From Alphaproteobacteria bacterium (GTDB taxonomy: Bacteria; Pseudomonadota; Alphaproteobacteria; Rs-D84): a stretch of DNA of 41,526 bases. The stretch is taken from contig JAFZIM010000052.1 of assembly GCA_017554365.1 (NCBI GenBank), forward strand, positions 1-41,526. Direction: 5' to 3'. A model generated the notes under the pieces. That model had not been told where the DNA came from. It saw nothing but the letters and a program-made list of their open reading frames with translations, and searched no databases. The translations under genes were made by a program, and so were the position numbers. Of the stretch, positions 556 through 18,817 are shown in pieces (the stretch's first letter is position 1; each line of letters starts with the position of its first letter).

Positions 556-759
556 ATGGCGGAAAAGAAAGTAAATAAAACAGCCGAAAAAGATGCTTTG
601 ACAAAGGATTCTTTGCAAAGCAAATTGGTTGATTTGAAAAAAGAACAAATGAATCAACGCTTTCAACTGGCTGCGGGTCAATTACCAAAAACACATGTTT
701 TGCGTAAAACTCGTCGTGAAATTGCACGTGTAAAGACCAAGTTGAATGCGGTAAAATAA
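556..759 (+). CDS. rpmC: 50S ribosomal protein L29
   Basis: 67 aa, K/E-rich helical protein in the canonical position between rplP and rpsQ. Contains the L29-like [17 protein letters not shown] motif. Confidence 0.93.
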
Positions 760-829
760 CTAAAACTTTGACTTTTGGTTTTTTTAGGTTAAAATTAAGG
801 GTCAAAAACAAGAAAATAAGGACTAAGTT

Positions 830-1096
830 ATGCCAAAACGTATACTGCAAGGAACCGTAAAAAGTACAGCAAATGACAAAACTGTCGTTGTAGAAGTAGA
901 ACGTCGTTTTCGTCATCCTTTGTATGGAAAGTTCGTGAAGCAGAATAAAAAATACAAGGCACACGATGAAAACAACGAATATAAAGTTGGTGAAATCGTT
1001 GCGATTGAAGAACATCGTCCTATTTCCAAGACAAAAACTTGGATTGTAAAAGGTCGTGTTGGGGTCAGCAAAGACACATCTGTCAATGTTGATTAA
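830..1096 (+). CDS. rpsQ: 30S ribosomal protein S17
   Basis: 88 aa. [12 protein letters not shown]…[19 protein letters not shown] is typical of S17. Synteny agrees. Confidence 0.96.
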
Positions 1097-1963: not shown

Positions 1964-2509
1964 ATGCAAAGCAGATTGCGTGAAATATACGAAAAAAATG
2001 TTGTACCTGAATTAGTAAAAGAATTCGGATACACAAATATGTTTGCAGTTCCAAAATTGTCCAAAATCGTTTTGAATATGGGCGTTGGCGAAGCTGTATC
2101 AGATAAAAAGAAATTAGATTCTGCTGCTGCTGATTTGACAGCAATTGCAGCACAAAAATCAATTATCACACATGCAAAGAAATCTATTGCTACATATCGT
2201 TTACGCGAAGGTCAAGCAATTGGTACAAAAGTAACTTTGCGTGGTAAAAGAATGTATGATTTCTTGGATAAATTAATCACAGTGGCTTTGCCACGTGTAA
2301 AGGACTTCCGTGGATTGTCAAAATCTAAATTTGATGGTCGTGGAAATTATGCATTCGGTATCAAAGAACATTTGATATTCCCAGAAATTTCTGTTGATAA
2401 GATTGATGCTATCCGTGGTATGGATATCGTTATTGTTACAACAGCAAAAACAGATGATGAAGCTCGTGCATTGCTGACAAAAATCGGCTTGCCATTGGTT
2501 TTGAAATAA
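1964..2509 (+). CDS. rplE: 50S ribosomal protein L5
   Basis: 181 aa. [40 protein letters not shown] is characteristic of L5. Confidence 0.97.
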
Positions 2510-2524
2510 TATAAGGAAATAAAG

Positions 2525-2827
2525 ATGGCTAAATTAGCGTTGATAAACAAACAAAAGAAACGTGAAAAATTGGTCGCACAATATGCAAAAAAGCGCGAAT
2601 CAATTAAAGCAAAGATGTCCGTAAATGCAACACCAGAAGAACGTATGGAAGCCATGAAAAAATTGGCTAAGTTGCCTCGCAACGCAAATCCAACACGTTT
2701 GCATAATCGTTGCTCTATCACAGGTCGTGCACGTGGTTATTCCCGCATGTTCGGTTTGTGCCGTCAACAAGTTCGCACTATGGCGTCAGAAGGAAAATTA
2801 CCAGGTGTACGTAAATCCAGCTGGTAA
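2525..2827 (+). CDS. rpsN: 30S ribosomal protein S14 (long, non-zinc form)
   Basis: 100 aa, ending RCSITGRARGYSRMFGLCRQQVRTMASEGKLPGVRKSSW. Confidence 0.96.
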   Translation: MAKLALINKQKKREKLVAQYAKKRESIKAKMSVNATPEERMEAMKKLAKLPRNANPTRLHNRCSITGRARGYSRMFGLCRQQVRTMASEGKLPGVRKSSW

Positions 2828-2904
2828 GATTAAGTTAAACAAGCAAGCTGTGGACAATGCAGCCCAAGCGCAGAAGTAAAATTCTGCAAAACAAGGAGTA
2901 AAAT

Positions 2905-3303
2905 ATGTCACTTTCACATCCAATCGGAGATATGGTTACCCGCATTCGCAATGGTCAAAATGCAGGTAAAGAATTCGTCGCCGTTCCAAACAGCAAATTA
3001 CGTGCTGCAGTATTGGCGGTTTTGAAAGACGAAGGTTTCATAACAGATTTTCGCAAAGAACAAATTGATGAAACACGCGCAAATTTGGTTATTGAATTAA
3101 AATACGTTAATGGTAATGGTGCAATCCAAGAAATTACAGCCGTTTCTAAACCAGGACGTCGTGTATATTCTGGCAGTGCAAAAATGCCACGCGTTTTGAA
3201 CGGGTTGGGTATCGCTATCGTATCCACACCAAATGGTGTTATGACTGATCACAAAGCACGCTTGATGAATGTCGGCGGTGAAATATTGTGCAAAGTTATC
3301 TAA
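2905..3303 (+). CDS. rpsH: 30S ribosomal protein S8
   Basis: 132 aa. Contains the PIGDMVTRIRNGQNA motif typical of S8. Confidence 0.96.
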   Translation: MSLSHPIGDMVTRIRNGQNAGKEFVAVPNSKLRAAVLAVLKDEGFITDFRKEQIDETRANLVIELKYVNGNGAIQEITAVSKPGRRVYSGSAKMPRVLNGLGIAIVSTPNGVMTDHKARLMNVGGEILCKVI

Positions 3304-3318
3304 TAAAAGGAAATCGTT

Positions 3319-3870
3319 ATGTCTCGTGCAGGAAAATATCCAGTAGAAATTAAAAATGGCGTATCGGTTGAATTAACAGATAAAGCCGTAGTTGTAAAAG
3401 GACCAAAAGGCGAAATGCATGTTTCTTTGGAAACTAAAAATGCTAATTTGGTTAATATCAAAGTTGAAGATGGTCATGTTGTTGTCACACCTAAAGATGC
3501 AGAAGAAAAAGCATCTCGTGCTATGTGGGGAACAATGACTCGTAATATTAAATCAGCTGTTAAAGGTGTTTCAGAAGGTTTTTCAAAACCTATGTATATG
3601 AAAGGTGTTGGTTATAAAGCATCTGTCAAAGGTAACATCTTTACATTGGTTGTTGGATTTTCTCATGATGTAGTTATGGAAATCCCAGCTGGTTTGACAG
3701 TTACAATGGGTGAAACACCAACAGAATTTACAATTTCAGGTATTGATAAAAATTTGTTGGGACAATTTGCTGACAAGATTCATAAAATCCGTAAAGCAGA
3801 CCCATATAAAGGTAAAGGTATCTTCTATAAAGACGAATATGTCCGTCGTAAAGAAGGCAAGAAGAAATAA
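3319..3870 (+). CDS. rplF: 50S ribosomal protein L6
   Basis: 183 aa. MSRAGKYPVEIKNGVSVEL…VVVKGPKGEM and a C-terminal PYKGKGI…RRKEGKK are typical of L6. Confidence 0.96.
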   Translation: MSRAGKYPVEIKNGVSVELTDKAVVVKGPKGEMHVSLETKNANLVNIKVEDGHVVVTPKDAEEKASRAMWGTMTRNIKSAVKGVSEGFSKPMYMKGVGYKASVKGNIFTLVVGFSHDVVMEIPAGLTVTMGETPTEFTISGIDKNLLGQFADKIHKIRKADPYKGKGIFYKDEYVRRKEGKKK

Positions 3871-3881
3871 TAAAACAATAT

Positions 3882-3903
3882 AGTTTCCGCTGTTACGGGA
3901 ACT
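3882..3903 (+). repeat. Intergenic stem-loop (rplF-rplR spacer) with core TTCCGCTGTTACGG
   Basis: AGTTTCCG / CGGGAACT 8-bp stem (one G-U pair) with loop CTGTTA. Same core as the hairpin at 1924-1941. Confidence 0.6.
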
Positions 3904-3922
3904 GAAAAAAAGGAAAAACAAA

Positions 3923-4279
3923 ATGTTAAGACATTTATCTTCTGAAGAAAGACGTACATTGGCAAATCGCGGTGCGTTGAAAAGAAAGAATCCTGGCAAA
4001 ATTCGTTTGTCAGTATTCAGATCTGCTCGTCATATTGAAATTCAAGCTATTGATGATGTAAAAGGTCACACATTGTGTGCAGCATCTTCAAAAGAAAAAG
4101 ATTTCAAGGGCAAAGGTTGGAATATCGCTGGTGCTGAAATGGTTGGCAAATTATTTGCTGAACGTGCAGTTAAAGCAGGTATCAAAGACAATTGTTATTT
4201 TGATCGTGGTCGTTATTTATACCATGGTCGTGTAAAGGCCTTGGGCGATGCAGTTCGCGCAAACGGAATCAATATTTAA
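3923..4279 (+). CDS. rplR: 50S ribosomal protein L18
   Basis: 118 aa. RLSVFRSARHIEIQAIDD… and C-terminal FDRGRYLYHGRVKALGDAVRANG are typical of L18. Confidence 0.95.
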   Translation: MLRHLSSEERRTLANRGALKRKNPGKIRLSVFRSARHIEIQAIDDVKGHTLCAASSKEKDFKGKGWNIAGAEMVGKLFAERAVKAGIKDNCYFDRGRYLYHGRVKALGDAVRANGINI

Positions 4280-4296
4280 TCTAGGAGCAAAATACA

Positions 4297-4851
4297 ATGG
4301 CACGTTATGATGATAAAAAATTACAATCAGATAATTTGGTAGATAAATTAGTTTCTATCAACCGCGTTTCAAAAACAGTGAAGGGTGGACGTAATATGTC
4401 TTTCTCTGCATTGGTTGTTGTCGGGGATAAATCTGGTATGGTTGGTTTTGGTAAAGGTAAAGCATTGGAAGTCCAAGCCGCCGTTCAAAAAGCAACAAAA
4501 GCTGCAAAAGCAAAAATGATTCGCGTTCCTTTGAAAGAAGGTCGTACATTACACCACGATAGTTCTGCTAAATATGGCGCAAGTAAATTGGTTGTTCGCA
4601 GTGCTGTTCCAGGTACTGGAATCATCGCTGGTGGTGCTTTGCGTGCAGTATTTGAATGTTTGGGCGTTCAAGACGTTGTTGTTAAATCACAAGGTTCAAA
4701 TAATCCAAACAATATGATTCGTGCTGCTTTCTTGGCTTTTTCTAAAATGAATTCTCCAAAAAGTGTTGCTGCACGTCGTGGCAAATCAGTTGGTGAAATC
4801 ATTGCTGGCCGTGATGGTAAAAAAGTAGAAGTTCAAGAAGAAGCAAAATAA
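4297..4851 (+). CDS. rpsE: 30S ribosomal protein S5
   Basis: 184 aa. [38 protein letters not shown] is the S5 core. Confidence 0.97.
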
Positions 4852-4931
4852 AAAAGTAAAACCGAGTACATAATCTTGAATTATGTGCGACAAGGACTAT
4901 ATCATAGTCATAGGACAAAAAGGAAAAAGAA

Positions 4932-5390
4932 ATGAAATTAAATGCTTTGATGGATAATTTTGGTGCACGTAAAGATGTTAAACGCGTTGGTCGCGGTATG
5001 GCATCTGGATATGGTAAAACATCTGGTCGTGGTAACAAGGGTCAGAAATCTCGTTCTGGTTCTCGTAAACAAGCCACATTCCAAGGTGGACAAATGCCAA
5101 TTTTGCGTCGTTTCCCAAAATTTGGATTTAATAATCCTTTTGCAAAAACTTATGCAACTATCAATTTAGGCGATATTGAAAAATTCATCGCTTCTGGCAA
5201 AATTGATGCTAAGAAAGAAATCACATTAGATTCTTTGTTCGAAGCAAAAATTTTGAACCGCAAATTAGATGGTTTGAAAGTTTTAGCCAAAGGCGAAATC
5301 AAATCTGCTGTTAATATCGTTGCAGACAAATGGTCAAAAGCCGCAGAAGCTGCAATCGTAAAAGCAGGTGGAAAAATTCAATCTAAATAA
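4932..5390 (+). CDS. rplO: 50S ribosomal protein L15
   Basis: 152 aa. KRVGRGMASGYGKTSGRGNKGQKSRSG is the L15 glycine-rich N-terminus. Confidence 0.96.
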   Translation: MKLNALMDNFGARKDVKRVGRGMASGYGKTSGRGNKGQKSRSGSRKQATFQGGQMPILRRFPKFGFNNPFAKTYATINLGDIEKFIASGKIDAKKEITLDSLFEAKILNRKLDGLKVLAKGEIKSAVNIVADKWSKAAEAAIVKAGGKIQSK

Positions 5391-5452
5391 TCAATAAACA
5401 ATACACCCATGGTTTTTTAATCTTGGGTGTATAAATCAAAAGATTAAATCGC

Positions 5453-6769
5453 ATGAAATTCTTGAAAAATATTTTTAGCAATTTAACTGATTTACAAAAA
5501 CGTATCTTGTTCACATTGGGTGCTTTGATTGTATATCGTATTGGTTCATTTATTCCATTACCAGGTGTTAATGCAAGTGCAGTTTTGCATTTATTTAATG
5601 GTGATAATGGCATTATGGGTATGTTCGATATGTTTTCAGGCGGTTCTTTGTCTCGTATGTCAGTATTGGCTTTGAATATTTTCCCATACATTTCAGCATC
5701 AATCGTTATACAATTATTGACAGCGACCAGTAAATCTTTGACAGATTTAAGAAAAGAAGGTGAATCTGGACGTATTAAAATCAACCAATATACACGTTAT
5801 TTGGCTGTGTTGTTGGCTGTGGTTCAAGGTTGGGCGGTTGTTCGTGGTTTGGAATCTATGGCACCAGTTAATGGTATTTCTGCGGTTGCTAATCCTGGAT
5901 TTGCATTTGAATTATCAGCGATAGTTGCGTTGGTTGGTGGAACTGTGTTTATCATGTGGTTGGCTGAACAGGTCACAGCACGTGGTGTAGGGCAGGGTGC
6001 ATCATTATTGATTTTTGCAGGTATCGTTGCAGAAGTTCCTGGTGGAATTGCTAAATTATTTTCTTTGATACGTGTTGGTCAAATGTCCCCAGCAATGATA
6101 GCTTTGGTATTGGGCTTTGTTGTTGGCATAGTTGCATTGATAGCATTTATGGAACAGGCACAACGTCGTATTCAAATCTTGTATCCACGTCAGGCGATGG
6201 CGAATGGTGCAATGAACACAAACGTTTCATATTTACCAATTAAAATCAATATGTCAGGTGTTATGGGACCTGTGTTTGCATCAAGTATTATGATGTTGCC
6301 AGCATTCGTTCAAAGGTTTGTGCAAAGTGATAATTTAATGGTTCAAAATATATTGGGCTTCTTTACATACGGAACTTGGTCATATATGGTATTATTTACA
6401 TTATTGATAGGGTTCTTTGCATATTTCCAGACAGCAGTTGTATTTAATTCAGAAGAAACAAGTACAAATTTAAAGAATGCTGGGGGATATATACCTGGGG
6501 TTCGTCCTGGTGAAGCAACCATGCATTATCTTGATGATATTGTTTCAAGAACAACTGCGATTGGCGTTGTTTATTTGATAGTAGTTTGTGTTTTACCAAT
6601 TTTATTAAATACACATGGCAAAATGCCATTGATGATTGGTGGAACAAGTGTTTTAATCGTGGCAGGTGTTGTATTGGATACAATGAACCAAATAAAATCA
6701 TATTTGGTTGAAAAACAATACACAGGTGTCGTGACTAATACACAAAAGAAAGGTCGTTTCCGTAATTAA
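5453..6769 (+). CDS. secY: Preprotein translocase subunit SecY
   Basis: 438 aa multi-pass membrane protein. LQKRILFTLGALIVYRIGSFIPLPGVN is the canonical SecY start. Position after rplO is as expected. Confidence 0.97.
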   Translation: MKFLKNIFSNLTDLQKRILFTLGALIVYRIGSFIPLPGVNASAVLHLFNGDNGIMGMFDMFSGGSLSRMSVLALNIFPYISASIVIQLLTATSKSLTDLRKEGESGRIKINQYTRYLAVLLAVVQGWAVVRGLESMAPVNGISAVANPGFAFELSAIVALVGGTVFIMWLAEQVTARGVGQGASLLIFAGIVAEVPGGIAKLFSLIRVGQMSPAMIALVLGFVVGIVALIAFMEQAQRRIQILYPRQAMANGAMNTNVSYLPIKINMSGVMGPVFASSIMMLPAFVQRFVQSDNLMVQNILGFFTYGTWSYMVLFTLLIGFFAYFQTAVVFNSEETSTNLKNAGGYIPGVRPGEATMHYLDDIVSRTTAIGVVYLIVVCVLPILLNTHGKMPLMIGGTSVLIVAGVVLDTMNQIKSYLVEKQYTGVVTNTQKKGRFRN

Positions 6770-6919
6770 TCGGGAATATAAAGAATTTGATTTTTTGGAT
6801 ATAGTATTATAAAATAATTATCGCAAAAAATCAGAAACATTCAAAAAACGTGTGGATTTTGGATGTTGAAATGGTGGGTGGCAACACCCGAAGAAAATAA
6901 CAAAAAAGGAAAATAAAAG

Positions 6920-7297
6920 ATGGCACGTATAGCAGGTGTTAACATTCCAAGTGAAAAACGCATTGAAATTGCGTTGCAATACATTCATGGTATTGGGCCG
7001 GCTAAATCAGCACAAATTTGTTCTGCATTGAAATTGAAAGACGGATTGCGTGCAAAAGATTTAACTGACGAGGATGTTATCAAAATTTCAAATTACATTG
7101 AACAAAATTTCAAAGTAGAAGGTGATGTTCGTCGTGAAGTTGCAATGAATATTAAACGTTTGCAAGATTTAAAAACATATCGCGGCATACGTCATCGTAA
7201 TCGTTTACCAGTTCGCGGTCAACGCACACAAACAAACGCAAGAACCCGTAAAGGAAAACGCGTTGTTGTTGCAGGTTCAGCGACCAAGGGTAAATAA
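6920..7297 (+). CDS. rpsM: 30S ribosomal protein S13
   Basis: 125 aa. [26 protein letters not shown] is typical of S13. Confidence 0.97.
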
Positions 7298-7360
7298 AGT
7301 TTAATTGGGTAGAGATTAACACGATAGTTAATTGAAGACATCTAATAAAAGGAAATTATA

Positions 7361-7744
7361 ATGGCAGTTACAAAATCAAAGAAGAAAGTTGTAAAGAAAG
7401 TATCACATGGTATTGCACATGTGGTTGCAACAAATAATAATACACGTATCACAATCACAGACCAAAGCGGTGCAGTTTTGACATGGGCAACCGCTGGGGC
7501 TAATAATTTCAAAGGTGCAAAAAAATCAACACCATACGCAGCAACAGTAGTAGCAGATGCAGTTGGTAAAAAAGTTGCTGAAATGGGTATGAAAACAATC
7601 GATGTTTTAATGCGCGGTATTGGTCAGGGTCGTGAATCTGCGGTTCGTGGTTTAGCAAATGCAGGATTGATTGTTCAATCTATTACAGACACGACACGTA
7701 TTCCACACAACGGGTGCCGTCCAAAGAAAGTTCGTCGTGTTTAA
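7361..7744 (+). CDS. rpsK: 30S ribosomal protein S11
   Basis: 127 aa. GIAHVVATNNNTRITITDQSG…FKGAKKSTPYAA and C-terminal IPHNGCRPKKVRRV are typical of S11. Confidence 0.97.
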   Translation: MAVTKSKKKVVKKVSHGIAHVVATNNNTRITITDQSGAVLTWATAGANNFKGAKKSTPYAATVVADAVGKKVAEMGMKTIDVLMRGIGQGRESAVRGLANAGLIVQSITDTTRIPHNGCRPKKVRRV

Positions 7745-7752
7745 TAAATACA

Positions 7753-7780
7753 ATACCGCCGTTTTGGCGGTATTTTTTTA
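7753..7780 (+). terminator. Rho-independent terminator directly after rpsK
   Basis: Perfect 8-bp stem ATACCGCC (7753-7760) / GGCGGTAT (7766-7773), loop GTTTT, followed by a T-run at 7774-7779. Confidence 0.75.
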
Positions 7781-7800
7781 TAAAATTTTATAAAAATATC

Positions 7801-7829
7801 TTGATATAAAAAAATATTTTTTTTACACT
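7801..7829 (+). promoter_or_regulatory. Sigma70-like promoter candidate for the CxxC-repeat gene P0
   Basis: TTGATA (7801-7806), 17-nt spacer, TACACT (7824-7829). It lies about 27 nt upstream of the GGAAGGA Shine-Dalgarno and the TTG start at 7856. Confidence 0.4.
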
Positions 7830-7855
7830 ATTACACAAGTTAATGGAAGGAATCT

Positions 7856-10780
7856 TTGAAAATCAAAAGTTTAGTTAGATTTTTGATGCTTGTTATTGCT
7901 TGCAATGTGTCAGTGCAAGCCGTTTTTGCTGATGATTTTGATGCTGAGGTTTTTTTAAATAGCTTAGAATTAAATCCACGACGTTGTTTTGGGGGTGGGC
8001 AGATATACGGCGAAGGTGGTGTTGGTTGTGCACAATGTCCAGGAGGCCAATCGGCTTCAAATGGTATCGATGAATGTTTTGCAAATTGTAAGAATGCGGA
8101 ATTTATTTCGCTTGGTGACGTATGTAGCGGGGATCCTAGTTGTGCTGCATCTATTACCGTTTTTATTATTTCTAAAAATTTATGTCAAAAATGTAAAGCG
8201 GGTGACAATAAATATTATTTAGAAAACAGATGTGTTTCAGCAACTGATTGTAATAATAATAACATGGTTGCTAATACGGTACTCGAAGACGATATTAATG
8301 TTGGTGTTTGTGAACCATGTGCCTCGGATCAATGTCGCAGTGGTAATGAATGTAAAGCCACCGATACAAATATACACAAACACAGTACTGATGGTATTTG
8401 TGTTGAATGTAGTGATAATCAATGTTTTAATGTCGATACTAATGTATGTATGGATTTGGACTCAACAGATATTATAAACAATAGAATGTATCGTGATACA
8501 AACGGAAATTGTGCTGCATGCGAAGGTTATACTGTTCCTCAAATTCCTAGACGTGCAAACGGTCCGGCATGTGTGACGCAGGAGCAGTGTAAAGACGGAT
8601 ATGGTATGCTTGAAGTTTCAGGTATAGACAACGCAAGATGTGGAAAATGTGAGAAACTTAGTGCAGTTCCTGAATTTCCTGATGTTGACCCTGGTGAATA
8701 TACATTAACAATTTATAAAAAAGAAACAGGAAGTGATAGGTATGTTTTTGCGAATCATCAATGTTGGGCTACAAATCCAAAAAAAGGAGGTTTCGCATAT
8801 AAGTATATGAAACCCGACGGACTTGGCAATTGGATTGCAGAGGATGATGTAAGCAAAATTGGTGAAACCAAAACAGGTTGTGTCGACCCGGAAAGACCTG
8901 TATGGGTGGTTGATGGATTATATTATGATATATATTATTGGCCAGAACATTTTGAATGTGGAACATGTGTAAATGGAATTTGGGAGGAGGATAGCGCACA
9001 TGCTGGTGGATGGAAATGCACATTATGTGAATCAGGTAAGATTCCTTTTGGTGCATGTAAAACATGTGCAGATTTAAATATGAATGCTGGTTGTAGTGTT
9101 GATTCTACCACAGGTCGATTAATAGGTGTACCACTTGGCGGATATTATTTTGAAAATGATGGAAGCAGGTCTTCCGCCCCATTATTTTGTGCGAAAACCG
9201 CTGGTGACGGTACGGACATGTGTTGGACGGGGGATAACAATAATAATACTTGTACCCCATGTGATTTAAATAATACAGTAGTAAGCCCAAGAACTGCAAC
9301 TGATGGTCGTCCGTATAATGAAAAGACAAATGCCACTTGTTCTGAAGGTTATTATATTAACAATGGTACATGTACTGTATGTCTTGGTGCAGGTAAGGGT
9401 TGGTATAAAAATGTAGATGGTAGTGGTGAACATCTGTTTTGTGATGATGCTTTTGAAAATGGTTTTTTAGCATATAAATGTGTTAATGATTTAATCAACA
9501 ACTATTATCGCGGTAATTGTGATAATGCCGGGGGAATTTCGTATAATAAATGGATAGCCCTGAATGAAGAAAACTTGAAACAAGTCATTAATGCGACAAA
9601 TGTGAATGTTAATAGTTTTATGCAGCAAGGAAAAGATCTTGGATATTTAGATGCAAATGATAAAACAATTAAAATGTGTACTTTACAAAATTTGGGGGTA
9701 GATAATAATGGCTTGGGTGCGGATGTGTGGGATGGTATAGGTATTGGATTACAAGAGATAGATGGAAATTCTGGGACCTTGCTTTATATAGATAGAGGGT
9801 GTTTCAAATGTAAGGAAGGATATGGATCTACAACTGACTCAGATTTACCAAATCTTTGTAAGAAATGTCCTAGCAATCAAGGCCCTATATTTATAGGAAA
9901 TGGGGATAATAAATACAAACGTCCAACAGCCGCCGAAGAAAATAAAGGATATTATGGTTGTAGTCCTTCATGTAAATTTGAAGGTTGGGGAAAATATAAT
10001 AATGAATGTGTATTGTGTTCAGATAAAGGAATGCAATCCATAGCAGGTTCAGAATATAATATTTGTCAAGCATGTCCAAAAGGAACAGGTTGGAATGAAG
10101 GATCTAAGACGTGTGGGGATTGTCCTAGTGATTCACCTTCGTATAATGGGAAATGTTTGGATTTTACAGGTTTGAAAAAAGAAATTTGTGATCCTAATGG
10201 TGCAAATTGTTCATCTAATAACCCTTTTTATATTGAAGCTGGTCAAATTAAATTTAGAAACGATTACCAAATAGATGAAAATGGTAATATTCAATATAAA
10301 GGTACGGGTAAAGATAACCCGCACAGATACGAAGCGGCTAAGAGTACAGACGGAAAGTATTATTGGGTGCCTTGTCGCGGGGGTAGTGATAATAATCTTA
10401 GTTATTCATGTTGTTATGAAGGTAAAAGAGTAAGACAAACAGATAATACGAGATTTGTATTACCTGGAATGGCATGTACAAAAGATAGTAGAAATAATAC
10501 TAAATCGACTTTACTTTGTGATGATGTTAACCCTGGTTTTGTGAGAGGCGAATCCGAATATCCAGATATTGATAGTTCATATAATATGGAAAATCTGACC
10601 AGTTTTATAGTAAATAGAGTTTGTAATAAACGTGTTGGTATTTCTAATTTATGCGATAATAATAATTGTATTGTTATACCAGAATGGTTGAAAGTGGAAA
10701 GTTTATCAACAAAATATTTGGATTATACCGGTAAAAGCGGTATGTCAAATTCTAGCCCTACTAGACCTGGAAAAACATAA
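7856..10780 (+). CDS. P0: secreted 974-aa cysteine-rich protein with 16 CxxC motifs (furin/ephrin-receptor-like/VSP-like repeats); function unknown
   Basis: Uninterrupted 2.9-kb ORF. TTG start is 5 nt after GGAAGGA. N-terminus MKIKSLVRFLMLVIACNVSVQA/VFA looks like a Sec signal peptide. I hand-counted about 69 Cys, including CAQCPGG, CQKCKAG, CEPC, CVEC, CAAC, CGKC, CGTC, CTLCESG, CKTC, CTPC, CTVC, CFKCKEGYG, CKKCPSNQG, CVLCSDKG, CQACPKGTGW and CGDCPSD. No C-terminal TM segment or beta-barrel is evident. Confidence 0.9.
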   Translation: MKIKSLVRFLMLVIACNVSVQAVFADDFDAEVFLNSLELNPRRCFGGGQIYGEGGVGCAQCPGGQSASNGIDECFANCKNAEFISLGDVCSGDPSCAASITVFIISKNLCQKCKAGDNKYYLENRCVSATDCNNNNMVANTVLEDDINVGVCEPCASDQCRSGNECKATDTNIHKHSTDGICVECSDNQCFNVDTNVCMDLDSTDIINNRMYRDTNGNCAACEGYTVPQIPRRANGPACVTQEQCKDGYGMLEVSGIDNARCGKCEKLSAVPEFPDVDPGEYTLTIYKKETGSDRYVFANHQCWATNPKKGGFAYKYMKPDGLGNWIAEDDVSKIGETKTGCVDPERPVWVVDGLYYDIYYWPEHFECGTCVNGIWEEDSAHAGGWKCTLCESGKIPFGACKTCADLNMNAGCSVDSTTGRLIGVPLGGYYFENDGSRSSAPLFCAKTAGDGTDMCWTGDNNNNTCTPCDLNNTVVSPRTATDGRPYNEKTNATCSEGYYINNGTCTVCLGAGKGWYKNVDGSGEHLFCDDAFENGFLAYKCVNDLINNYYRGNCDNAGGISYNKWIALNEENLKQVINATNVNVNSFMQQGKDLGYLDANDKTIKMCTLQNLGVDNNGLGADVWDGIGIGLQEIDGNSGTLLYIDRGCFKCKEGYGSTTDSDLPNLCKKCPSNQGPIFIGNGDNKYKRPTAAEENKGYYGCSPSCKFEGWGKYNNECVLCSDKGMQSIAGSEYNICQACPKGTGWNEGSKTCGDCPSDSPSYNGKCLDFTGLKKEICDPNGANCSSNNPFYIEAGQIKFRNDYQIDENGNIQYKGTGKDNPHRYEAAKSTDGKYYWVPCRGGSDNNLSYSCCYEGKRVRQTDNTRFVLPGMACTKDSRNNTKSTLLCDDVNPGFVRGESEYPDIDSSYNMENLTSFIVNRVCNKRVGISNLCDNNNCIVIPEWLKVESLSTKYLDYTGKSGMSNSSPTRPGKT

Positions 10781-10795
10781 AATATTATAAATATA

Positions 10796-10824
10796 TTGAC
10801 TTGTCATATTTTTTGATTTAAAAT
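10796..10824 (+). promoter_or_regulatory. Near-consensus sigma70-like promoter candidate upstream of rpoA
   Basis: TTGACT (10796-10801), exact 17-nt spacer, TAAAAT (10819-10824). It is 70 nt upstream of the rpoA ATG. Confidence 0.5.
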
Positions 10825-10894
10825 ATCCCAGCACATTGTGAAAGATGTGTGCCGTGTGGCGAAAATAATAAACTAAGCCCTATGGAGTGTTTAA

Positions 10895-11938
10895 ATGATA
10901 GAAAAAAACTGGATGACTTTAATAAAGCCAAAAAAATTGAATATTAAAGTCGATGAACATAATCCTAATATTGCAACATTAATCGCAGAACCTTTGGAAA
11001 AAGGTTTCGGTTTGACATTGGGAACAGCATTACGTCGTGTATTGTTGTCTTCTTTACAGGGTTGTGCCCCTATCTATGTCAAAATTGATGGTGTTCAACA
11101 CGAATTCAGCAGTTTGTCTGGTGTTCGTGAAGATATTACGGATATTATTTTAAATTTAAAAGGGGTTTATTTCAAAGCCCTTACCGAAGGTCAACACAAA
11201 GCAACATTGAAAGTTAAAAATACAAATGCTGGTGGCGATATGGTTGTCACAGCAGGTATGATTGAAACTTCTGGTGCTGTCGAAGTAATGAACAAAGATG
11301 CTGAAATTTGCACTTTGGACGTTGGTGCTGAATTTAATATGGAAATCACATTGGGTTCAGGCCGTGGTTATGTCCCTGCAAGTGCTAATGCAACAGATTT
11401 GCCTTTGGGAACTATACCGGTTGATTCAATTTATTCTCCTATTTTAAATGTGGCTTCTTCCGTTACTCAGACCCGTGTCGGTCAAAGTACAGATTATGAT
11501 AAATTGGAATTGTCAGTTAAAACAAATGGTTCTGTATCTCCAGAAGATGCGATTGCTTTTGCAGCCCGTATTTTGACAGACCAATTAACTGTATTCATCA
11601 ATTTTGAAGATCCTGCACAAATCGGTGCTGGTGAAGAAGACGAAAATGCAAAAGATGTTTTGCCTTTCGATCCACAATTGTTAAAACGTGTAGAGGAACT
11701 TGAATTGTCTGTTCGTGCAAATAATTGCTTGAAAAACGATAAAATTAGTTGGTTGGGCGAATTAGTTCAAAAGACAGAAGCTGATATGTTGAAAACACCT
11801 AATTTCGGCCGTAAATCTTTGAACGAAATCAAAGCTCAATTGGAAGCAATGGGATTGTCATTAGGTATGGAAGTACCAGGATGGCCACCTGAAAATGTTG
11901 CAGAATTGGCAAAAAAATATGAAGACCCTTATAAATAA
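10895..11938 (+). CDS. rpoA: DNA-directed RNA polymerase subunit alpha
   Basis: 347 aa. [25 protein letters not shown] is the N-terminal domain. The C-terminal domain shows [13 protein letters not shown]…GRKSLNEIK. Confidence 0.97.
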
Positions 11939-12598: not shown

Positions 12599-12618
12599 TC
12601 AATTTGCCAAAAATTAAA

Positions 12619-12641
12619 CCGCCCAATTGGGCGGTTTTTTT
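12619..12641. terminator. Rho-independent terminator between convergent rplQ and the 133-aa gene
   Basis: CCGCCC (12619-12624) / GGGCGG (12629-12634), loop AATT, then a T-run at 12635-12641. A-rich on the other side, so it may act in both directions. Confidence 0.7.
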
Positions 12642-13174: not shown

Positions 13175-13203
13175 TTGTCAAAAAATGTATGTTATGATAA
13201 AAT
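13175..13203 (+). promoter_or_regulatory. Promoter candidate with extended -10 for P1
   Basis: TTGTCA (13175-13180), 17-nt spacer, TAAAAT (13198-13203), with TG at 13195-13196 (the string TGATAAAAT). Confidence 0.45.
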
Positions 13204-13228
13204 TATTCCAAAGGTTAAGGAGTATTTT

Positions 13229-16042
13229 ATGAAAAAATTGTTAATTTTACCTGTGTTAATCGCTATGTGTATGGCGGATTTCGGCGCTTTTGCTGCTGCA
13301 CCACGTGGTGGAAGAACTGGCGGAACACCTGCTGCATCAAATGCTGGTGGTAATGTCAAAGCTGCTCGTGCTGCTAAACAAAACACCCAGGTCAAACCAG
13401 GAACAGCATCTGGTAAAGCAACTAGTGGTACAACAGGCAACAAAACATCAGGTTCTAATACTGGTAGTCAAAAGAATAGTGCGCCTGCTGCATCAAATGC
13501 TGGTGGTAATGTCAAAGCTGCTCGTGCTGCTGCTACACAGAAAGTGTTGAATACTGGAACAAAAATTGCACAGAAAACAGAAAATACTGTGGTACCTAAA
13601 GAATGTCAGGACGCATATTATGGCTGTATGGATACATTCTGTATGTTGGATAATACATCAGGTGGTCGTTGCCAATGTAGTGACAGAAGTAAAGATTTAA
13701 ACCCATTATTGGACGAAATTACAAAAATCGACCAAATTGCTTATACAATGGCTACCGAAGGTGTAGAAAGATTGCAAATGGGTGAAAATGCAGAACAGGT
13801 TATTGCGATGGCAAAAGCAGCAGGTGCAAAGGTTTCATCTACAGATAACAGTTTGGGAATTCAAAGTGCAGACGATTATGCTGCTAATGCTGGTAAAAAC
13901 AAAAAATCAACAAGAAAAGAATTGGATTTAAATGCATTCAAAGTGGGTGTATTTGATGACGATGATGATGTTTTTGGTGAAGATGAAAAATCAGAAGCCG
14001 AAAAGAAAGCAGAAGTTTTGGAAGACAGCATGGCAAATAAACTTGGTGATGATTTACGTTCTGCTGCAAATAAACTTTGTGTTGAACAAATGCCAAAACA
14101 ATGTGTAGATTCAACATCTATGTTGCAATTGGCTTATACACAAAAAATTAAATCAGATTGTAATGCATACGAAAATTCTTTGAAACAACAAAAGATTGCA
14201 AGTAATCAAAAATTGGCTGCTGCTGAAAAAGCATTACGTGAAGCCGCTCTTGAATCTTTTGAAAAAGAAAATAAATATGAATTGGGACCATGTATAACTG
14301 AATTTACAAAATGTATCCAAAAAGATGCAGGTTGTGGTGAAGATTATACAGGTTGTACAACTTTGTCTGCAAAAGACAATGTAAGAAACAAAACAGGTCA
14401 ACAAACAGTTATTCCAGGAACAACTGTTAAAATATCTGTTTCTACATTGGAAGCAATCACAGCAAAGAAATCAATGTGTGAACACATTACAAAACAATGT
14501 GTAAAGGCAAACCAAAATGATGCAGTATGGACAGCGTTCTTGAAAAATGTTGCACCTGCATTGAAATCAGCTGAAGAACTTGCAGAAGAAAAGTTACGTT
14601 TAGAATGTATACCAAACATTTCTGAATGTTTCCAAAAAGCTTGTGCACAGAAATTTGATCCAAAAGCAAAAGAAGCAAACTATGATTCATGTTTGTCTGA
14701 TCCTTCTATCGTAAAAGATTTATGTAAGGTAAAATTGGAACCATGTTTGGAAGCAACTGGTGGTTCTTATGCAAATGCTGAATCTTCTTCTTTGTGGAAT
14801 GGTGTTTTAGCGGCTTTGGGTGCTATGCGTGTTGATGCATGTACAAGTGAAGTAAAAGCATGTTTGGAATCTGATGATGTTTGTGGTAAAGATTACGGTA
14901 GATGTGTCGGTTTGGATACAGAATCTATCGGTGAAATGTGCCCAACAGATAAGTTGACTGCTTGTATGGCAAAGAATGAGAATAATGAATCTACTGTACG
15001 TGCATATGTTGCAAGAGTTGCACAAGGTATCGCATTAGGTATTGATAGCAATATGCTTACCGTTTGTCAAAAAGCTGCTGATGATGCTATGACAAAGGTT
15101 TGTGGTGCAACTGATTCTTGTGAATCTTTGACATTTGATGGCAGAATATTTGCTGATAATTTAAATGTCCAAGTATGTAGAAAAGGTGCTGAGGGTGTGT
15201 ATGAATGTGCTAATACAGCTGATGGTTTCGATGCCAAATATGTTTTGAATGGTGAAGTAGTTCCAAATATTACAGGCATGTTTGATTTGGCAACTATAAC
15301 ATTCGATACAGAAAATGGTTTTGGTGTTGATACTGGATTGGCCTCTTATACAGAAAAGACCAGTAACGGACGTTATTATACAGGTGATAAATGGGCTGAC
15401 AGTGTTGCAAAACAATTAAACGCAGCAATAAATGCTAAATGGAATACAATTAAATCTGACCCAACAGTCACATATTGTATGGAAGGTCGTCAAGTCCAAG
15501 GTTTTGATAGCAAGAAATTTGGTAAAAAGAATGATAAAGAATCTATACGTTTTCCAAACTTGTTAGACAACAAGAGAGATGTTATGATTTATGCTTTATA
15601 TAAATCAATGTCTTCTGCATATTCTGATGCATTGGATGGATTACAAGAAAAACGTGAAGCTGCTCAAAAGACCATTGATGATCGTTTAGCAAGAATTGAT
15701 GGTGCTGGTGAATCAGCTCAGGATAGATTAAATGAAAGTGCATGTCAGAGTGGTTATGCTAGACCTGACCCTAACTGGAATGGTGATAGAAATAAGAGAC
15801 GTGCTAGAGCATATATAAGACAGCTTGTTGATGTTAATGCATCTTATAATGCGGACACAAATGTATGTACTGCTGAAACAATGCAATATACATGTACTAA
15901 ATATTTATCACCAAGTTGTAGAATCTTTGACAATGGAACAAAGACAAAGACAAAGACAATACAAATGCATAAATATAACAGAGAGGATGCATTGGGTAGT
16001 AATGGTTATACAGCGAAACCAAAAAATCCTGATGAATTCTAA
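13229..16042 (+). CDS. P1: secreted cysteine-rich protein, unrecognised paralogous family (937 aa)
   Basis: ATG at 13229 is 6 nt after AAGGAG. Signal peptide MKKLLILPVLIAMCMADFGAFA. Family signature CQDAYYGCMDTFCMLDNTSGGRCQC at 13604-13678. Long blocks are shared with P2, P3 and P6. Confidence 0.92.
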   Translation: MKKLLILPVLIAMCMADFGAFAAAPRGGRTGGTPAASNAGGNVKAARAAKQNTQVKPGTASGKATSGTTGNKTSGSNTGSQKNSAPAASNAGGNVKAARAAATQKVLNTGTKIAQKTENTVVPKECQDAYYGCMDTFCMLDNTSGGRCQCSDRSKDLNPLLDEITKIDQIAYTMATEGVERLQMGENAEQVIAMAKAAGAKVSSTDNSLGIQSADDYAANAGKNKKSTRKELDLNAFKVGVFDDDDDVFGEDEKSEAEKKAEVLEDSMANKLGDDLRSAANKLCVEQMPKQCVDSTSMLQLAYTQKIKSDCNAYENSLKQQKIASNQKLAAAEKALREAALESFEKENKYELGPCITEFTKCIQKDAGCGEDYTGCTTLSAKDNVRNKTGQQTVIPGTTVKISVSTLEAITAKKSMCEHITKQCVKANQNDAVWTAFLKNVAPALKSAEELAEEKLRLECIPNISECFQKACAQKFDPKAKEANYDSCLSDPSIVKDLCKVKLEPCLEATGGSYANAESSSLWNGVLAALGAMRVDACTSEVKACLESDDVCGKDYGRCVGLDTESIGEMCPTDKLTACMAKNENNESTVRAYVARVAQGIALGIDSNMLTVCQKAADDAMTKVCGATDSCESLTFDGRIFADNLNVQVCRKGAEGVYECANTADGFDAKYVLNGEVVPNITGMFDLATITFDTENGFGVDTGLASYTEKTSNGRYYTGDKWADSVAKQLNAAINAKWNTIKSDPTVTYCMEGRQVQGFDSKKFGKKNDKESIRFPNLLDNKRDVMIYALYKSMSSAYSDALDGLQEKREAAQKTIDDRLARIDGAGESAQDRLNESACQSGYARPDPNWNGDRNKRRARAYIRQLVDVNASYNADTNVCTAETMQYTCTKYLSPSCRIFDNGTKTKTKTIQMHKYNREDALGSNGYTAKPKNPDEF
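13328..13375 (+). repeat. Perfect 48-bp direct repeat, copy 1 (inside P1)
   Basis: cctgctgcatcaaatgctggtggtaatgtcaaagctgctcgtgctgct, encoding PAASNAGGNVKAARAA. Confidence 0.95.
13484..13531 (+). repeat. Perfect 48-bp direct repeat, copy 2 (inside P1)
   Basis: Identical 48-mer located 156 nt (52 codons, in frame) downstream of copy 1. Confidence 0.95.
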
Positions 16043-16231: not shown

Positions 16232-18817
16232 ATGCCAAAAATATTTTATGCTTTGTTAATGTTGGTGGTTGTTATGCCTGAAAATGTCAGTGCGGCTGTG
16301 AATCGTGCGCGTGCTGGGGCTTCACAAAAAGTTGTTAATGCTGGAACCAAGGTTGCTGCTGCAACTAAATCAAATTTATTAGACAAAGATTGCGAAGAAT
16401 CTTTCTTTGGTTGTTTAGATGCTTTCTGTGTTGTTGAAAATGTTTCTGGGGGGCGTTGTGTTTGCAGTAATAAACATGCAGATTTGTCAGCACAACTTGA
16501 TGAAATTTTAAAAATGGACGAAGATGCCTATGCTATATCTACATACGGCGTTGAACATATAAATTTAGGTAAAGCAGCGGATAGCGTTATATCTGCTTCT
16601 GAAAAGGCATTTGATAAAGCAAAAAAAGATGCAGAAGACGAAGATTTAACAGAAAAGAAATCTGCTGAACCAGTTAAGAAAAAAACTCTCAGTTTTGATG
16701 AATGGAATAAATCTTTTGGTGGTGATGATGACGATGAAGATGAAGAAGAAACTGCATCACTTGATGAAGATGATATTTCAAATAAAAAGGGCGATGAATT
16801 ATATATTGCCGCTGCAAAAATGTGTTGGACTCAGGTGCCAGATAAATGTAAACCAAAAGAAGAAATGGCAAAAATGCTTTATACACAAAAAATCAAATCT
16901 GATTGTGCTGCATTTGAAAATAGTGTAAAGCAGAAAAGAACAGAAAGCACAAATAAACTTGAAACTGCAAAGAAAAATGTTCGTGATGCTGCGTTTGAAA
17001 GTTTACAAGCGTCTAATAAATTTGATATGGGACAATGTGCGATTGAATATGTTTCTTGTTTGCGTAAAGATGATATTTGTGGCAAAGATTTAACAAAATG
17101 TGTGACGTTGGCTGCAAATGAAAATGTGACAAAAGGCGAATCGGAACAAGTCGAAATCAAAGGCGAATTTTCAAGTATTTCTATTGCTGCTTCTACGATG
17201 GATTCTTTGAATGCAAAACGTGCAATGTGTGCCAGTGTGACAGACCAATGTTCTTCGGTTGATAAAGATGAATTGTGGACTTTGGTTTTGAAAAATATCG
17301 CACCTGAATTAAAGAATGCAGAATTAATTGCTGAATCTGATTTACGTGGTAATTGTTTAACAAATATTTCTGAATGTTATTTGAAAGCATGTAAAGATAA
17401 TATGGACCCAAAAGATCCTGATGGTTCATACGATATGTGTTTGGCAAGACCAGACAATTATAAATCTTTCTGTAAAGTTCAATTAGAACCATGTTTGGCT
17501 GCAACAGGTGGTTCGTATGATGATCCTGATTCATCAACTTTGTGGCGTGGGGTTTTAGCAAAATTAGCTGCAATGCGTGTTGATGCATGTACTGATGAAT
17601 TTAAATCTTGTTTACAAAGTGAAGACAGATGTGGCGAAGATTATTCACAATGTATTGGTCTTGACAATGATGATGTTGCGAAATTATGTCCAGAAGATAA
17701 ATTGCCTGCATGTTATAAAGAATACAATGGGAAAGTTGAAAGTGTTAATGAAACACTTGAAAGAATTGCCCAAGGTGTCATGTTAAATGTTGATAATGGT
17801 TTGTTGGCTGCATGTGAAAATGCTATCAATGAAGCAATGGTCAAGGTTTGTGGTGATGCTGAAAATTGTAATAAATTGGCAGTTGATAGTGGTATTGGTT
17901 CAAGAACTTTGAAATTAGAATATTGTGAAACAACTGACGAAGGTTATGTAAATTGTAAACAAGATGTTGGTTTAATTACAGATATTGAATTGGGTAAAAC
18001 AACACGTGATTCTAATTTAAAAACTACCAAGCATGATATTCATTTCTTTTCAGGTGTATATCGTGGTGTGATAGATTGGAGTGCTATATCAGTCAATGAT
18101 GATGTTAGTGGTATTACAGATTATGATGAATATGCTGAAAAAGCGGCTGATAGTTTAAAGAATATGAATGAAGATGAAAAAACAAGAATTAAATCTGAAA
18201 TTGGTTCATTAGCCAGTGCTATTAAGAATGCAATATCTGCTGTAGAATCTGATCCAAAAATTCAATTCTGCACCACAGGTCGTCAGGTTGAAGGTTTGGC
18301 GAATGATGAAGGATTTACACAAAAAATAGGCAAGGGTAATAATCCTTCTTTCCCAAATATTACACAAACTATGCGTAATATGATTGTGAATTCTGCATTA
18401 CAGCAAGCACGTGAAAATTACAATAAAAAATTGTCTGAATTGGAAAAGCAGGAAGCCGAAGAATCACAAGGTTTGGCAAGCCGTATTGCACAAATCAGTG
18501 GTGAAAATGAAAAAGTTGTGAAGCAAGATATGGCAAGAAAAGCATGTATTGCTTTGGCTGAAAAAGATAAACTTGGTGAATCTGTTGGTAGTTCCGTGAA
18601 GAAAGCGATTGAACGTGTTTCTGGTAGCGATGGTAAATTAACAGGACATAGTGCTGAATCTTCTTATAATTACAAAAGAAGTATTACTACTACATTTAAT
18701 TTGGAAGATATGATTTGTCATAAATGTATCAGAACACAACATTGTGAAAAGACAAAAACAAGTTATTGTAAACAATGGGGTGAAGAAGTAGAAACCTGTG
18801 AAGACATACATTATTAA
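16232..18817 (+). CDS. P2: secreted cysteine-rich protein, same paralogous family (861 aa)
   Basis: Signal peptide MPKIFYALLMLVVVMPENVSA. Signature CEESFFGCLDAFCVVENVSGGRCVC at 16391-16465. 38 Cys by hand count. C-terminal tail CHKCIRTQHCEKTKTSYCKQWGEEVETCEDIHY. Confidence 0.92.
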   Translation: MPKIFYALLMLVVVMPENVSAAVNRARAGASQKVVNAGTKVAAATKSNLLDKDCEESFFGCLDAFCVVENVSGGRCVCSNKHADLSAQLDEILKMDEDAYAISTYGVEHINLGKAADSVISASEKAFDKAKKDAEDEDLTEKKSAEPVKKKTLSFDEWNKSFGGDDDDEDEEETASLDEDDISNKKGDELYIAAAKMCWTQVPDKCKPKEEMAKMLYTQKIKSDCAAFENSVKQKRTESTNKLETAKKNVRDAAFESLQASNKFDMGQCAIEYVSCLRKDDICGKDLTKCVTLAANENVTKGESEQVEIKGEFSSISIAASTMDSLNAKRAMCASVTDQCSSVDKDELWTLVLKNIAPELKNAELIAESDLRGNCLTNISECYLKACKDNMDPKDPDGSYDMCLARPDNYKSFCKVQLEPCLAATGGSYDDPDSSTLWRGVLAKLAAMRVDACTDEFKSCLQSEDRCGEDYSQCIGLDNDDVAKLCPEDKLPACYKEYNGKVESVNETLERIAQGVMLNVDNGLLAACENAINEAMVKVCGDAENCNKLAVDSGIGSRTLKLEYCETTDEGYVNCKQDVGLITDIELGKTTRDSNLKTTKHDIHFFSGVYRGVIDWSAISVNDDVSGITDYDEYAEKAADSLKNMNEDEKTRIKSEIGSLASAIKNAISAVESDPKIQFCTTGRQVEGLANDEGFTQKIGKGNNPSFPNITQTMRNMIVNSALQQARENYNKKLSELEKQEAEESQGLASRIAQISGENEKVVKQDMARKACIALAEKDKLGESVGSSVKKAIERVSGSDGKLTGHSAESSYNYKRSITTTFNLEDMICHKCIRTQHCEKTKTSYCKQWGEEVETCEDIHY

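Follow-up and report, generated by a model that had tools for sequence, protein, structure and literature searches.

A candidate fast-diversifying, cysteine-stabilised exported protein between rpsK and rpoA in Enterousia-like gut bacteria

What kind of protein is encoded by a 2.9-kb cysteine-rich gene between rpsK and rpoA, at the end of the S10-spc-alpha ribosomal cluster of a gut bacterium? The question arises in a stretch of 41,526 nt (the window; contig JAFZIM010000052.1 of assembly GCA_017554365.1), where the gene under study is the open reading frame (ORF) 7856-10780 on the plus strand, with a TTG start and a product of 974 aa. An earlier note on the window had described the product as a secreted protein built from CxxC repeats that resemble eukaryotic furin-like and ephrin-receptor-like modules and the variant-specific surface proteins (VSPs) of Giardia. 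Our analysis suggests a lineage-specific, fast-diversifying, cysteine-stabilised protein that is exported or at the surface, and that represents one allele of a hypervariable rpsK-rpoA gene in a subset of Enterousia-like bacteria; judged from sequence, we give this reading slightly better than an even chance.

The host is a Candidatus Enterousia-like gut alphaproteobacterium of the order Rs-D84. When the species representatives of GTDB were scanned with rpoA, 67 loci matched at 80-88% identity, the next best being Rhodospirillales at ~60%. These 67 loci are labelled Candidatus Enterousia or uncultured Alphaproteobacteria or Rickettsiales, and their sources are rumen, faeces and human gut. Enterousia genomes are below 1 Mb and lack the tricarboxylic acid cycle, a respiratory chain and standard transporters, and dependence on a partner has been proposed (PMC12306168).

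The protein, its alleles and their divergence

Only two other alleles were found in all the protein collections searched. The homologue searches covered 5.8 billion clusters plus 1.84 billion representatives, the GTDB species representatives and the JGI metagenomes. With the window protein named P0001, the second allele P0002 (978 aa) has 43% identity to it and lies on locus L001 and partly on L086, and the third, P0003 (1,250 aa; L084 and L085), has ~30% identity over the C-terminal 500-690 residues. All alleles are located between rpsK and rpoA with the same neighbours. No relative was found among the GTDB species representatives, no member was gained by searching the 5.8-billion-cluster collection with a profile, and the JGI metagenomes yielded one further copy, a partial one of allele B. 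The three alleles share a signal peptide, scattered Cys modules, a core (C[AS]DLNM.DGCSV ... GYYFEN) and several tail motifs, and the 2.9-kb ORF is open in all of them.

The gene evolves an order of magnitude faster than its surroundings. Between the window and L001, our main pair, protein identity is 99% for SecY, 100% for S13 and S11, 95% for RpoA and 97% for L17, and 63%, 92% and 89% for neighbouring Cys-rich paralogues, compared with 43% for the 974-aa protein. The immediate flanks are equally conserved toward the other allele: rpsK (ribosomal protein S11, PF00411; 7361..7744, +) is 100% identical to L001 and 99.2% to L084 at the protein level, and rpoA (10895..11938, +) is 95.4-95.7% identical to both. 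We calculated synonymous (dS) and nonsynonymous (dN) divergence by the Nei-Gojobori method. Against L001 the flanking genes have dS 0.01-0.25, dN 0-0.02 and dN/dS 0.02-0.20, and the paralogue P861 has 0.31, 0.046 and 0.15, respectively, while the gene under study has dS 0.66, dN 0.435 and dN/dS 0.66. Against L084 its dS is 1.4 and its dN 0.72, with flanks at dS 0.02-0.36.

The divergence is mosaic along the gene. DNA homology to L001 covers 2459-8194 (94.7%), has a single further stretch inside the gene at 8928-9419 (86%), and starts again at 10789, 9 nt past the stop codon; homology to L084 breaks at 7936, the end of the signal peptide, and also resumes at 10789. The core (aa ~404-506) is the only part with flank-like divergence from L001 (dS 0-0.10, identity 0.84-0.88), compared with dS 0.3-2.5 and identity 0.30-0.58 in most other 50-codon windows. 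dN is at least as large as dS in aa 26-131 and about equal to it in the N-terminal region aa 44-265. Strong purifying selection was rejected as the cause of the near-invariant core, as its dS is also ~0-0.1; the core therefore shows the background divergence of the two genomes and the rest is hyper-diverged. Cys columns are kept in 62 of 66 cases (94%), versus 46% identity at other positions. We read this pattern as the signature of a scaffold with purifying selection at the cysteines and with diversifying or relaxed selection elsewhere. Synonymous divergence clearly exceeds the genomic background, which suggests either that the alleles are old or that recombination via the conserved flanks has imported them.

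The protein itself is rich in patterned cysteines, with 69 Cys in 974 residues (7.1%) against 0.71% in 17 housekeeping proteins of the window. CxxC occurs 16 times, versus 4.8 +/- 2.0 in 5,000 composition-preserving shuffles, none of which reaches 16, and CxxC-x(1-2)-G occurs eight times versus 0.97 expected (0/5,000). Under a second null with the Cys positions held fixed, the expectation for CxxC-x(1-2)-G is 3.4 +/- 1.6 and 54 of 5,000 shuffles reach eight; CxxCP, observed four times, is expected 0.69 times (15/5,000). Thus the cysteine and CxxC counts of the earlier note are correct, all eight motif strings that it quoted are present, and its observation that base composition follows the window also holds (GC content 0.360, and 0.205 at third codon positions, GC3, versus 0.370 and 0.236 in the housekeeping genes). 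The mature protein is acidic (103 kDa, isoelectric point 4.8) and has an even number of cysteines, 68. It was considered as a multihaem c-type cytochrome, a candidate that we rejected since none of the 16 CxxC motifs is followed by His and the whole protein has only seven His.

Export through the Sec pathway is predicted, in line with the secretion claimed before. The signal peptide (aa 1-25; 7856..7930, +) is MKIKSLVRFLMLVIACNVSVQAVFA, followed by DD, and is the sole hydrophobic segment of the protein. It is laid out as MKIKSLVR-FLMLVIACNVSV-QAVFA before the DD, with n-, h- and c-regions, an AxA-type site and the highest hydropathy in the protein, and signal peptidase I is predicted to cleave after VFA. 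In a hydropathy scan the only hydrophobic 19-mer is this signal peptide, and the mature protein has no transmembrane segment. A lipobox-like VIAC ends at Cys16, and P0003 has LLAC. The c-region xVFA is common to the window protein, P0003 and four sister-species counterparts described below (L004, L007, L010 and L015); the counterparts in L016 and L053 lack the lipobox, and the signal peptidase I site xVF(A/G) is kept in all counterparts including these two. The gene call in public collections starts at the ATG of codon 11 and gives 964 aa (P0001). We favour the TTG at 7856 as the start because the Shine-Dalgarno sequence GGAAGGA stands 5 nt upstream and the N-terminus MKIKS(L/F)(V/I)RFL is kept in both other alleles.

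Five regions follow the signal peptide. The N-terminal cysteine-module region (aa 44-265; 7985..8650, +) alternates CxxC and C-x(3-7)-C pairs, as judged by Cys spacing. It is followed by a Cys-poor linker or domain (aa 266-403; 8651..9064, +) that is very divergent between alleles (identity 0.32-0.56), and by the core segment (aa 404-506; 9065..9373, +) with CADLNM.GCSV ... GYYFEN ... CTPCDLNN ... CSEGYYI, whose motifs are kept in P0003. A C-terminal CxxC cluster (aa 649-767; 9800..10156, +) holds the best remnant of Ephrin_rec_like or TNFR-like units, e.g. CQACPKGTGWNEGSKTC. The tail module (aa 768-974; 10157..10777, +) has DNPHRY, LPGMAC, CDD.NPGF and P.W.K in all three alleles and no known homologue. 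About one third of the protein is built of CxxC units, and aa ~270-640 and 770-974, more than half of its length, are not CxxC repeats. The earlier note had missed this, as well as the hypervariable position between rpsK and rpoA and the extreme rate of divergence.

Identity of the cysteine modules

The 974-aa protein stays below every curated family threshold. In Pfam the whole protein gives only noise at E <= 10 (fn3_3, Frataxin, Phage_rep_org_N), with no Ephrin_rec_like, VSP or Furin-like match and none to thioredoxin-fold, ferredoxin or zinc-ribbon families; Furin-like (PF00757) is also absent at this level when segments are searched. NCBIfam gives no match, and among PDB sequences neither the single sequence nor a three-allele profile finds one above threshold. 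Two of the profiles that the earlier note proposed as a check, PF07699 and PF03302, thus fail on the whole protein. Its segments come closer. For aa 732-759 the top Pfam match is Ephrin_rec_like (PF07699) at 13.7 bits (E 0.055), compared with a curated gathering cut-off of 23.1 bits, and the protein does not qualify formally as a member of the family. For aa 649-676 the top match is NCD3G at 14.4 bits, also below cut-off. P0003 reaches 17.7 bits against Ephrin_rec_like as a whole and 23.0 bits on a segment, and its N-terminal units look canonical, e.g. CEACPSGKYSYNNN and CEECPYGTYANRVGGANDC.

Sister species have counterparts that do pass. In nine Enterousia species a plus-strand Cys-rich ORF (7-10% Cys, 102-778 aa) stands directly after rpsK, and eight of these ORFs begin with a signal peptide, the exception being the 5'-truncated one in L008. 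Five score above the PF07699 cut-off (L004 56.3, L010 57.0, L011 26.9, L015 55.2 and L052 46.8 bits), with secondary Pfam matches to TNFR_ELAPOR1, NCD3G and TNFR_c6. Eight of the nine are joined in a blastp network that does not include the window protein (best E 0.15). Three of the nine share the promoter and the Shine-Dalgarno sequence with the window gene, and at least two its TTG start. We read the window gene and these counterparts as positional orthologues, i.e. one ancestral gene whose mature part may have diverged past pairwise recognition.

A unit hidden Markov model (HMM) gives a weak signal of the same type of module in the window protein. The model (consensus CKKCPAGKYSNSGGATEC) was built on 43 units of the sister proteins, scored as the sum of positive bits and tested against 200 shuffles with the Cys positions fixed. 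The window protein scores 9.5 bits versus 1.0 +/- 1.7 in the shuffles, none of which reaches it; P0003 scores 45.5 bits (0/200) and P0002 6.5 bits (7/200). The first unit of the N-terminal region, CAQCPGGQSASNGIDEC, fits the canonical 17-residue unit, and the HMM match is at aa 58-74. Using hhalign, the three-allele profile was compared with a six-sequence profile of canonical, i.e. Ephrin_rec_like-type, proteins, and aa 716-768 align with canonical units at E 2.9e-4 but with a probability of only 40%.

Structure prediction gives the same theme at low significance. AlphaFold2 on aa 640-775 reaches a predicted local distance difference test score (pLDDT) of 70-83 only for aa 704-772. Foldseek with this sub-model against the PDB gives 163 matches at E <= 10 and none at E <= 0.001; the best has E 0.39, with template modelling (TM) scores of 0.2-0.3. 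The top 50 matches are all furin-like (R-spondin Fu1-Fu2, the cysteine-rich region, CR, of the insulin receptor), Eph cysteine-rich domain (CRD), class-C G-protein-coupled receptor cysteine-rich, TNFR-family or NCD3G modules. The theme is the one that the earlier note had expected, although no match is significant. The furin-like repeats of R-spondin and of the insulin and epidermal growth factor receptors, together with the Eph CRD, are the top structural neighbours of the model and would share a beta-hairpin and a disulfide ladder with it, but the matches have E 0.39-2.7 and TM 0.2-0.3, and the Furin-like profile does not match.

Taken together, the segment and fold matches, the shared slot and head, and the unit-HMM and hhalign signals are best explained if aa 44-265 and 649-767 consist of degenerate modules of the Ephrin_rec_like type. 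The furin and ephrin-receptor-like resemblance claimed earlier therefore survives in part: no Pfam threshold is reached by the protein itself (13.7 against 23.1 bits), while five sister counterparts pass PF07699, none of the 200 shuffles matches the unit-HMM score and the whole top 50 of the fold search is of this kind. Like PF07699 and TNFR-like proteins, the window protein would carry tandem small Cys modules on a C-x2-C-P-x-G-x-Y...G...C pattern outside the cytoplasm; CAQCPGGQSASNGIDEC and CQACPKGTGWNEGSKTC fit the unit residue for residue, and the sister-species counterparts are bona fide members (27-57 bits). It differs from them in being sub-threshold, in having such units over only about one third of its length beside an orphan core of ~100 aa and an orphan tail of ~200 aa, in its bacterial host, and in the fixed hypervariable chromosomal slot of its gene. 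By sequence, aa 266-648 and 768-974 are orphan, and the link to Ephrin_rec_like units says nothing on them.

VSP membership was rejected. PF03302 gives no match, and the protein has neither a C-terminal transmembrane helix nor the CRGKA tail, so that the earlier likeness to Giardia VSPs does not extend to family membership.

The rpsK-rpoA slot and its expression signals

Across Enterousia in general, the rpsK-rpoA gap is a hot spot of insertion. We compared 40 Enterousia loci with both flanks and 13 outgroup loci; 12 further Enterousia loci have no rpsK within 6 kb upstream of rpoA. The gap measures 109-4,279 bp (median ~1.6 kb) in the 40 loci versus 73-193 bp in the outgroup. Elsewhere in Enterousia its cargo consists of alpha/beta hydrolases (L012 and L053), small secreted ORFs and ~650-aa secreted proteins, and it is empty in four species. 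The small secreted ORFs (~105-140 aa) have an 'ETETYTN' motif, occur on either strand and adjoin rpoA, and the ~650-aa proteins, which begin NVATTAGSNLTAYNGTG, are found in L050, L055, L057, L060, L067 and L068. The classical alpha operon is rpsM-rpsK-[rpsD]-rpoA-rplQ, and it is split in the Enterousia clade. With the operon split after rpsK and a promoter in front of rpoA, the gap would therefore be a landing pad, or neutral slot, between two very conserved genes. In this cluster rpsD, adk, infA and rpmJ are likewise missing where they would normally be expected, and infA is found in the window at 34792-35121 on the minus strand.

The gene appears to be an independent transcription unit, because rpsK is followed by a terminator and separate promoters precede the gene and rpoA. 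The intrinsic terminator (7752..7774, +) has a 10-bp stem with five GC pairs and a T-run and ends the S10-spc-rpsM-rpsK unit; an equivalent hairpin and T-run follow rpsK in most of 46 Enterousia-type sequences, including those with empty gaps. A promoter-like site (7801..7829, +) reads TTGATA, a 17-nt A/T-tract spacer and TACACT, and the Shine-Dalgarno sequence GGAAGGA (7845..7851, +) precedes the TTG start by 5 nt. The rpoA promoter (10796..10824, +; TTGACT, 17 nt, TAAAAT) begins 16 nt past the stop codon of the gene and is kept, as TTGACT, 17 nt and TATAAAAT, in nearly all of 47 Enterousia-type sequences. No terminator is predicted between the gene and rpoA, the next on the plus strand being after rplQ (12616-12637), and transcripts may read into rpoA-rplQ. 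Embedding in the ribosomal operon for co-expression was considered as an explanation and is weakened by the same terminator and promoters.

The head of the gene is common to both types of slot protein. We aligned six loci from rpsK to the start codon, three of the type studied here (window, L001, L084) and three of the canonical type (L004, L016, L052). All six have the terminator, AAAAATA(T)TCTTGA at -35, a T-run with A(C/A)ACT at -10 and a GGA(A)GG Shine-Dalgarno sequence, and the TTG start is evident in window, L001, L084, L004 and L052.

The leader of rpoA has features of its own. It is conserved in nearly all of the 47 sequences (10796-10894 in the window, and the same position in L001-L046). 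A hairpin of variable sequence has compensatory changes at five of eight predicted pairs, and behind it stands an invariant GGYGAAAATRATAAACTAAGCY element with ends that are able to pair. The leader has no Rfam match, and Rfam gives nothing relevant at gathering score or at E <= 1. It may be an undescribed cis-regulatory leader of rpoA-rplQ.

Competing explanations and neighbouring genes

The explanation that we favour joins a conserved head to a rapidly changing mature part. The gene would bring its own promoter, Shine-Dalgarno sequence, TTG start and Sec signal peptide ending in VFA, and behind this head would lie a mature part with extremely fast turnover. Its two stretches of four-cysteine modules (aa 44-265 and 649-767) would be degenerate descendants of Ephrin_rec_like (GCC2_GCC3) or TNFR-type units, joined to the orphan core (aa 404-506) and the orphan tail (aa 768-974). 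After Sec export the cysteines may form a disulfide scaffold, or possibly metal sites, that would tolerate almost any surface substitution. We speculate that the protein is displayed or released and contacts a partner cell, the host or mucus, and that its turnover may be driven by diversifying selection from host immunity, phage or partner specificity, probably aided by recombination via the conserved flanks.

Several points weigh against this explanation. Expression, localisation and disulfides are all predictions from sequence; in a Gram-negative cell, passage into the periplasm is all that a Sec signal proves, and no outer-membrane anchor, autotransporter or secretion signal was recognised in the 974-aa protein. 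DsbB-type oxidative folding is not assured in a lineage with no respiratory chain (PMC12306168). Each of the links to Ephrin_rec_like is weak, namely the 13.7-bit segment, the 40% hhalign probability and Foldseek at E >= 0.39, in a protein below all curated thresholds, and the AlphaFold2 model of the whole protein, made from two sequences, has pLDDT 27 and is unusable. The elevated dS may be partly alignment error or saturation, and recombination is therefore suggested only. The similarity of the alleles tracks that of their flanks, which also fits vertical, very fast divergence. Finally, two independent assemblies of one strain, made from different samples, have identical copies of the gene and its promoter, and thus there is no sign of within-strain switching.

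A bolder hypothesis could be that the gap serves specifically to display a VSP-like coat protein with a cysteine scaffold, with alleles older than the species, shuffled between strains by homologous recombination via the near-invariant flanks and kept diverse by negative frequency-dependent selection from host immunoglobulin A, phage or a partner cell. We regard it as possible but doubtful. In bacteria, alleles of outer-surface proteins are exchanged by flanking homologous recombination at loci between conserved housekeeping genes. The window gene resembles such hypervariable antigen loci in a divergence limited to the mature coding part, its sharp borders, its dS and dN far above the flanks and its raised dN/dS, but recombination is only suggested here, the flanks are ribosomal and RNA-polymerase genes and the cargo is made of eukaryote-type cysteine repeats. 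With Giardia VSPs and ciliate immobilisation antigens the protein shares many CxxC motifs, a predicted place outside the cytoplasm, an organism of the gut lumen and fast turnover with the cysteines kept, and a VSP-like, protease-resistant variable coat is plausible as a functional analogy. It differs from these antigens in that its gene is single at one locus with no large switched family, and in the absence of PF03302, a transmembrane helix, CRGKA and a glycosylphosphatidylinositol signal. If the display-locus hypothesis were true, the variable cysteine-rich coats of gut protists would have a parallel among bacteria, and the locus would offer a first handle on attachment or evasion of Rs-D84 toward its partners.

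The remaining explanations differ mainly in where the modules come from and in what the cysteines do. That they were taken from an animal or protist by horizontal transfer and imitate a host receptor or ligand module is unlikely in our view. To our knowledge PF07699 is mainly a eukaryotic family, and the Foldseek theme consists entirely of eukaryotic receptors. The canonical counterpart L004 has metagenomic relatives at 61-82% identity, all with PF07699, followed by matches at 30-38%. Among these distant matches are an oyster PCSK5-like protein (33% identity, E 1.4e-10), its only named relative outside the clade, and two contigs with eukaryote-like TIG, WSC and fn3 neighbours, all of which would suit a transfer. 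However, one further distant match is on a clearly bacterial contig with LpxB, no homologue of the 974-aa protein is detectable in eukaryotes, the repeats of eukaryotic proteins show only 30-34% identity, i.e. at domain-family level, and the gene type occupies one fixed site across many Enterousia species with a bacterial promoter, Shine-Dalgarno sequence, TTG and signal peptide. This head and the native GC and GC3 argue against any recent transfer, and the distant matches of L004 are a family-level resemblance in which no transfer event is shown; an ancient one may have occurred, though nothing in the sequences requires it. The acquisition from a eukaryote that the earlier note had entertained is thus not directly supported. 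On the bacterial contig, which comes from the same sample series (L089/L090, 4001-4978; neighbours LpxB, a resolvase and GH77), the match is a 325-aa Ephrin_rec_like protein seen on 14 contigs, so that in this gut community repeats of this kind also occur outside the rpsK-rpoA slot. A metal-binding or thiol-redox protein, whose CxxC pairs hold Zn or Fe or act as periplasmic redox dithiols, seems quite unlikely. Metal and redox proteins have CxxC as their classic motif, a tetrahedral site could be built from each four-Cys unit (CxxC plus C-x(3-7)-C), and disulfide formation is uncertain in an anaerobe with no respiratory chain (PMC12306168). Yet the absence of CxxCH and the scarcity of His speak against a His-containing zinc site as well as a cytochrome, the best weak matches are all to disulfide-module families with none to redox or metal folds, and enzymes and cofactor carriers are not normally at 43% identity beside neighbours at 95-100%.

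The turnover itself allows two more explanations. The gene could be a switchable antigen, with an expression site into which silent cassettes are copied or which is turned on and off through its A7 and T8 promoter tracts, as is known from other variable antigens of bacteria. The mosaic divergence, the unreplaced core and the abrupt limits at either end of the mature coding part fit such rewriting, and A7 and T8 homopolymers do stand in the 17-nt promoter spacer, with the T-tract kept in counterparts. We nevertheless consider it very improbable: DNA similar to the gene, as silent cassettes or internal repeats, is found nowhere else in the window or in related loci, the two assemblies of the strain agree in gene and promoter, and no recombinase or reverse transcriptase was noticed among the window ORFs, not all of which were scanned against Pfam. 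Or the gene could be dispensable cargo that drifts under relaxed constraint with no selected function, as the unrelated cargo of the slot in other species, its four empty cases and a dN/dS of 0.66 might indicate. This is hardly credible for a 2.9-kb ORF that stays open at 36% GC in three alleles only 30-43% identical, with 94% of the Cys columns, the core and tail motifs, the promoter, the Shine-Dalgarno sequence and the signal peptide all kept, and a useless 3-kb gene is not expected to last in a genome below 1 Mb.

The favoured explanation, that of a diversifying cysteine-stabilised exported protein, has some practical meaning. Rs-D84 and Enterousia are widespread in human and livestock guts, and the locus is a concrete candidate for contact with a partner or host. 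The slot has a fixed, easily amplifiable site between two universal genes, and the gene is the fastest-evolving of its neighbourhood. Ephrin-receptor-like repeats, usually deemed eukaryotic, would recur as components of exported proteins in a bacterial lineage with reduced genomes. It appears that they can decay below profile detection within a genus, which calls for caution with orphan-gene calls in metagenomes.

Other large cysteine-rich proteins are encoded near the gene. Six mutually homologous secreted proteins (745-955 aa, 32-41 Cys, blastp E 1e-6 to 1e-179) lie at 13175-16042, 16232-18817, 18820-21552, 35135-37372 and 37379-39871 on the plus strand and at 32361-34718 on the minus strand, with no significant Pfam match and one below threshold. 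As had been claimed, the 974-aa protein shows no similarity to them (best blastp E 1.4). Four of the six share an N-terminal C-x3-[YF]-x2-C-[LM]-D-x-[FG]-C-x3-[ND]-x2-GG-x-C-x-C. Their orthologues follow rplQ in all eight related loci checked and evolve much more slowly, with 82-92% identity between alleles for two of them. A seventh Cys-rich ORF (22696-24885, +; 729 aa) has no blastp link to the six.

The first kilobase of the window differs from a close relative in an unusual way. L002 otherwise has ~13 differences from the window in 19.8 kb, but 88 mismatches are confined to the first 1 kb (window 1-1000, the 3' end of rpsC and rplP, versus L002 1018-2017), and this segment is either a recombination tract in the S3/L16 genes or an assembly chimera.

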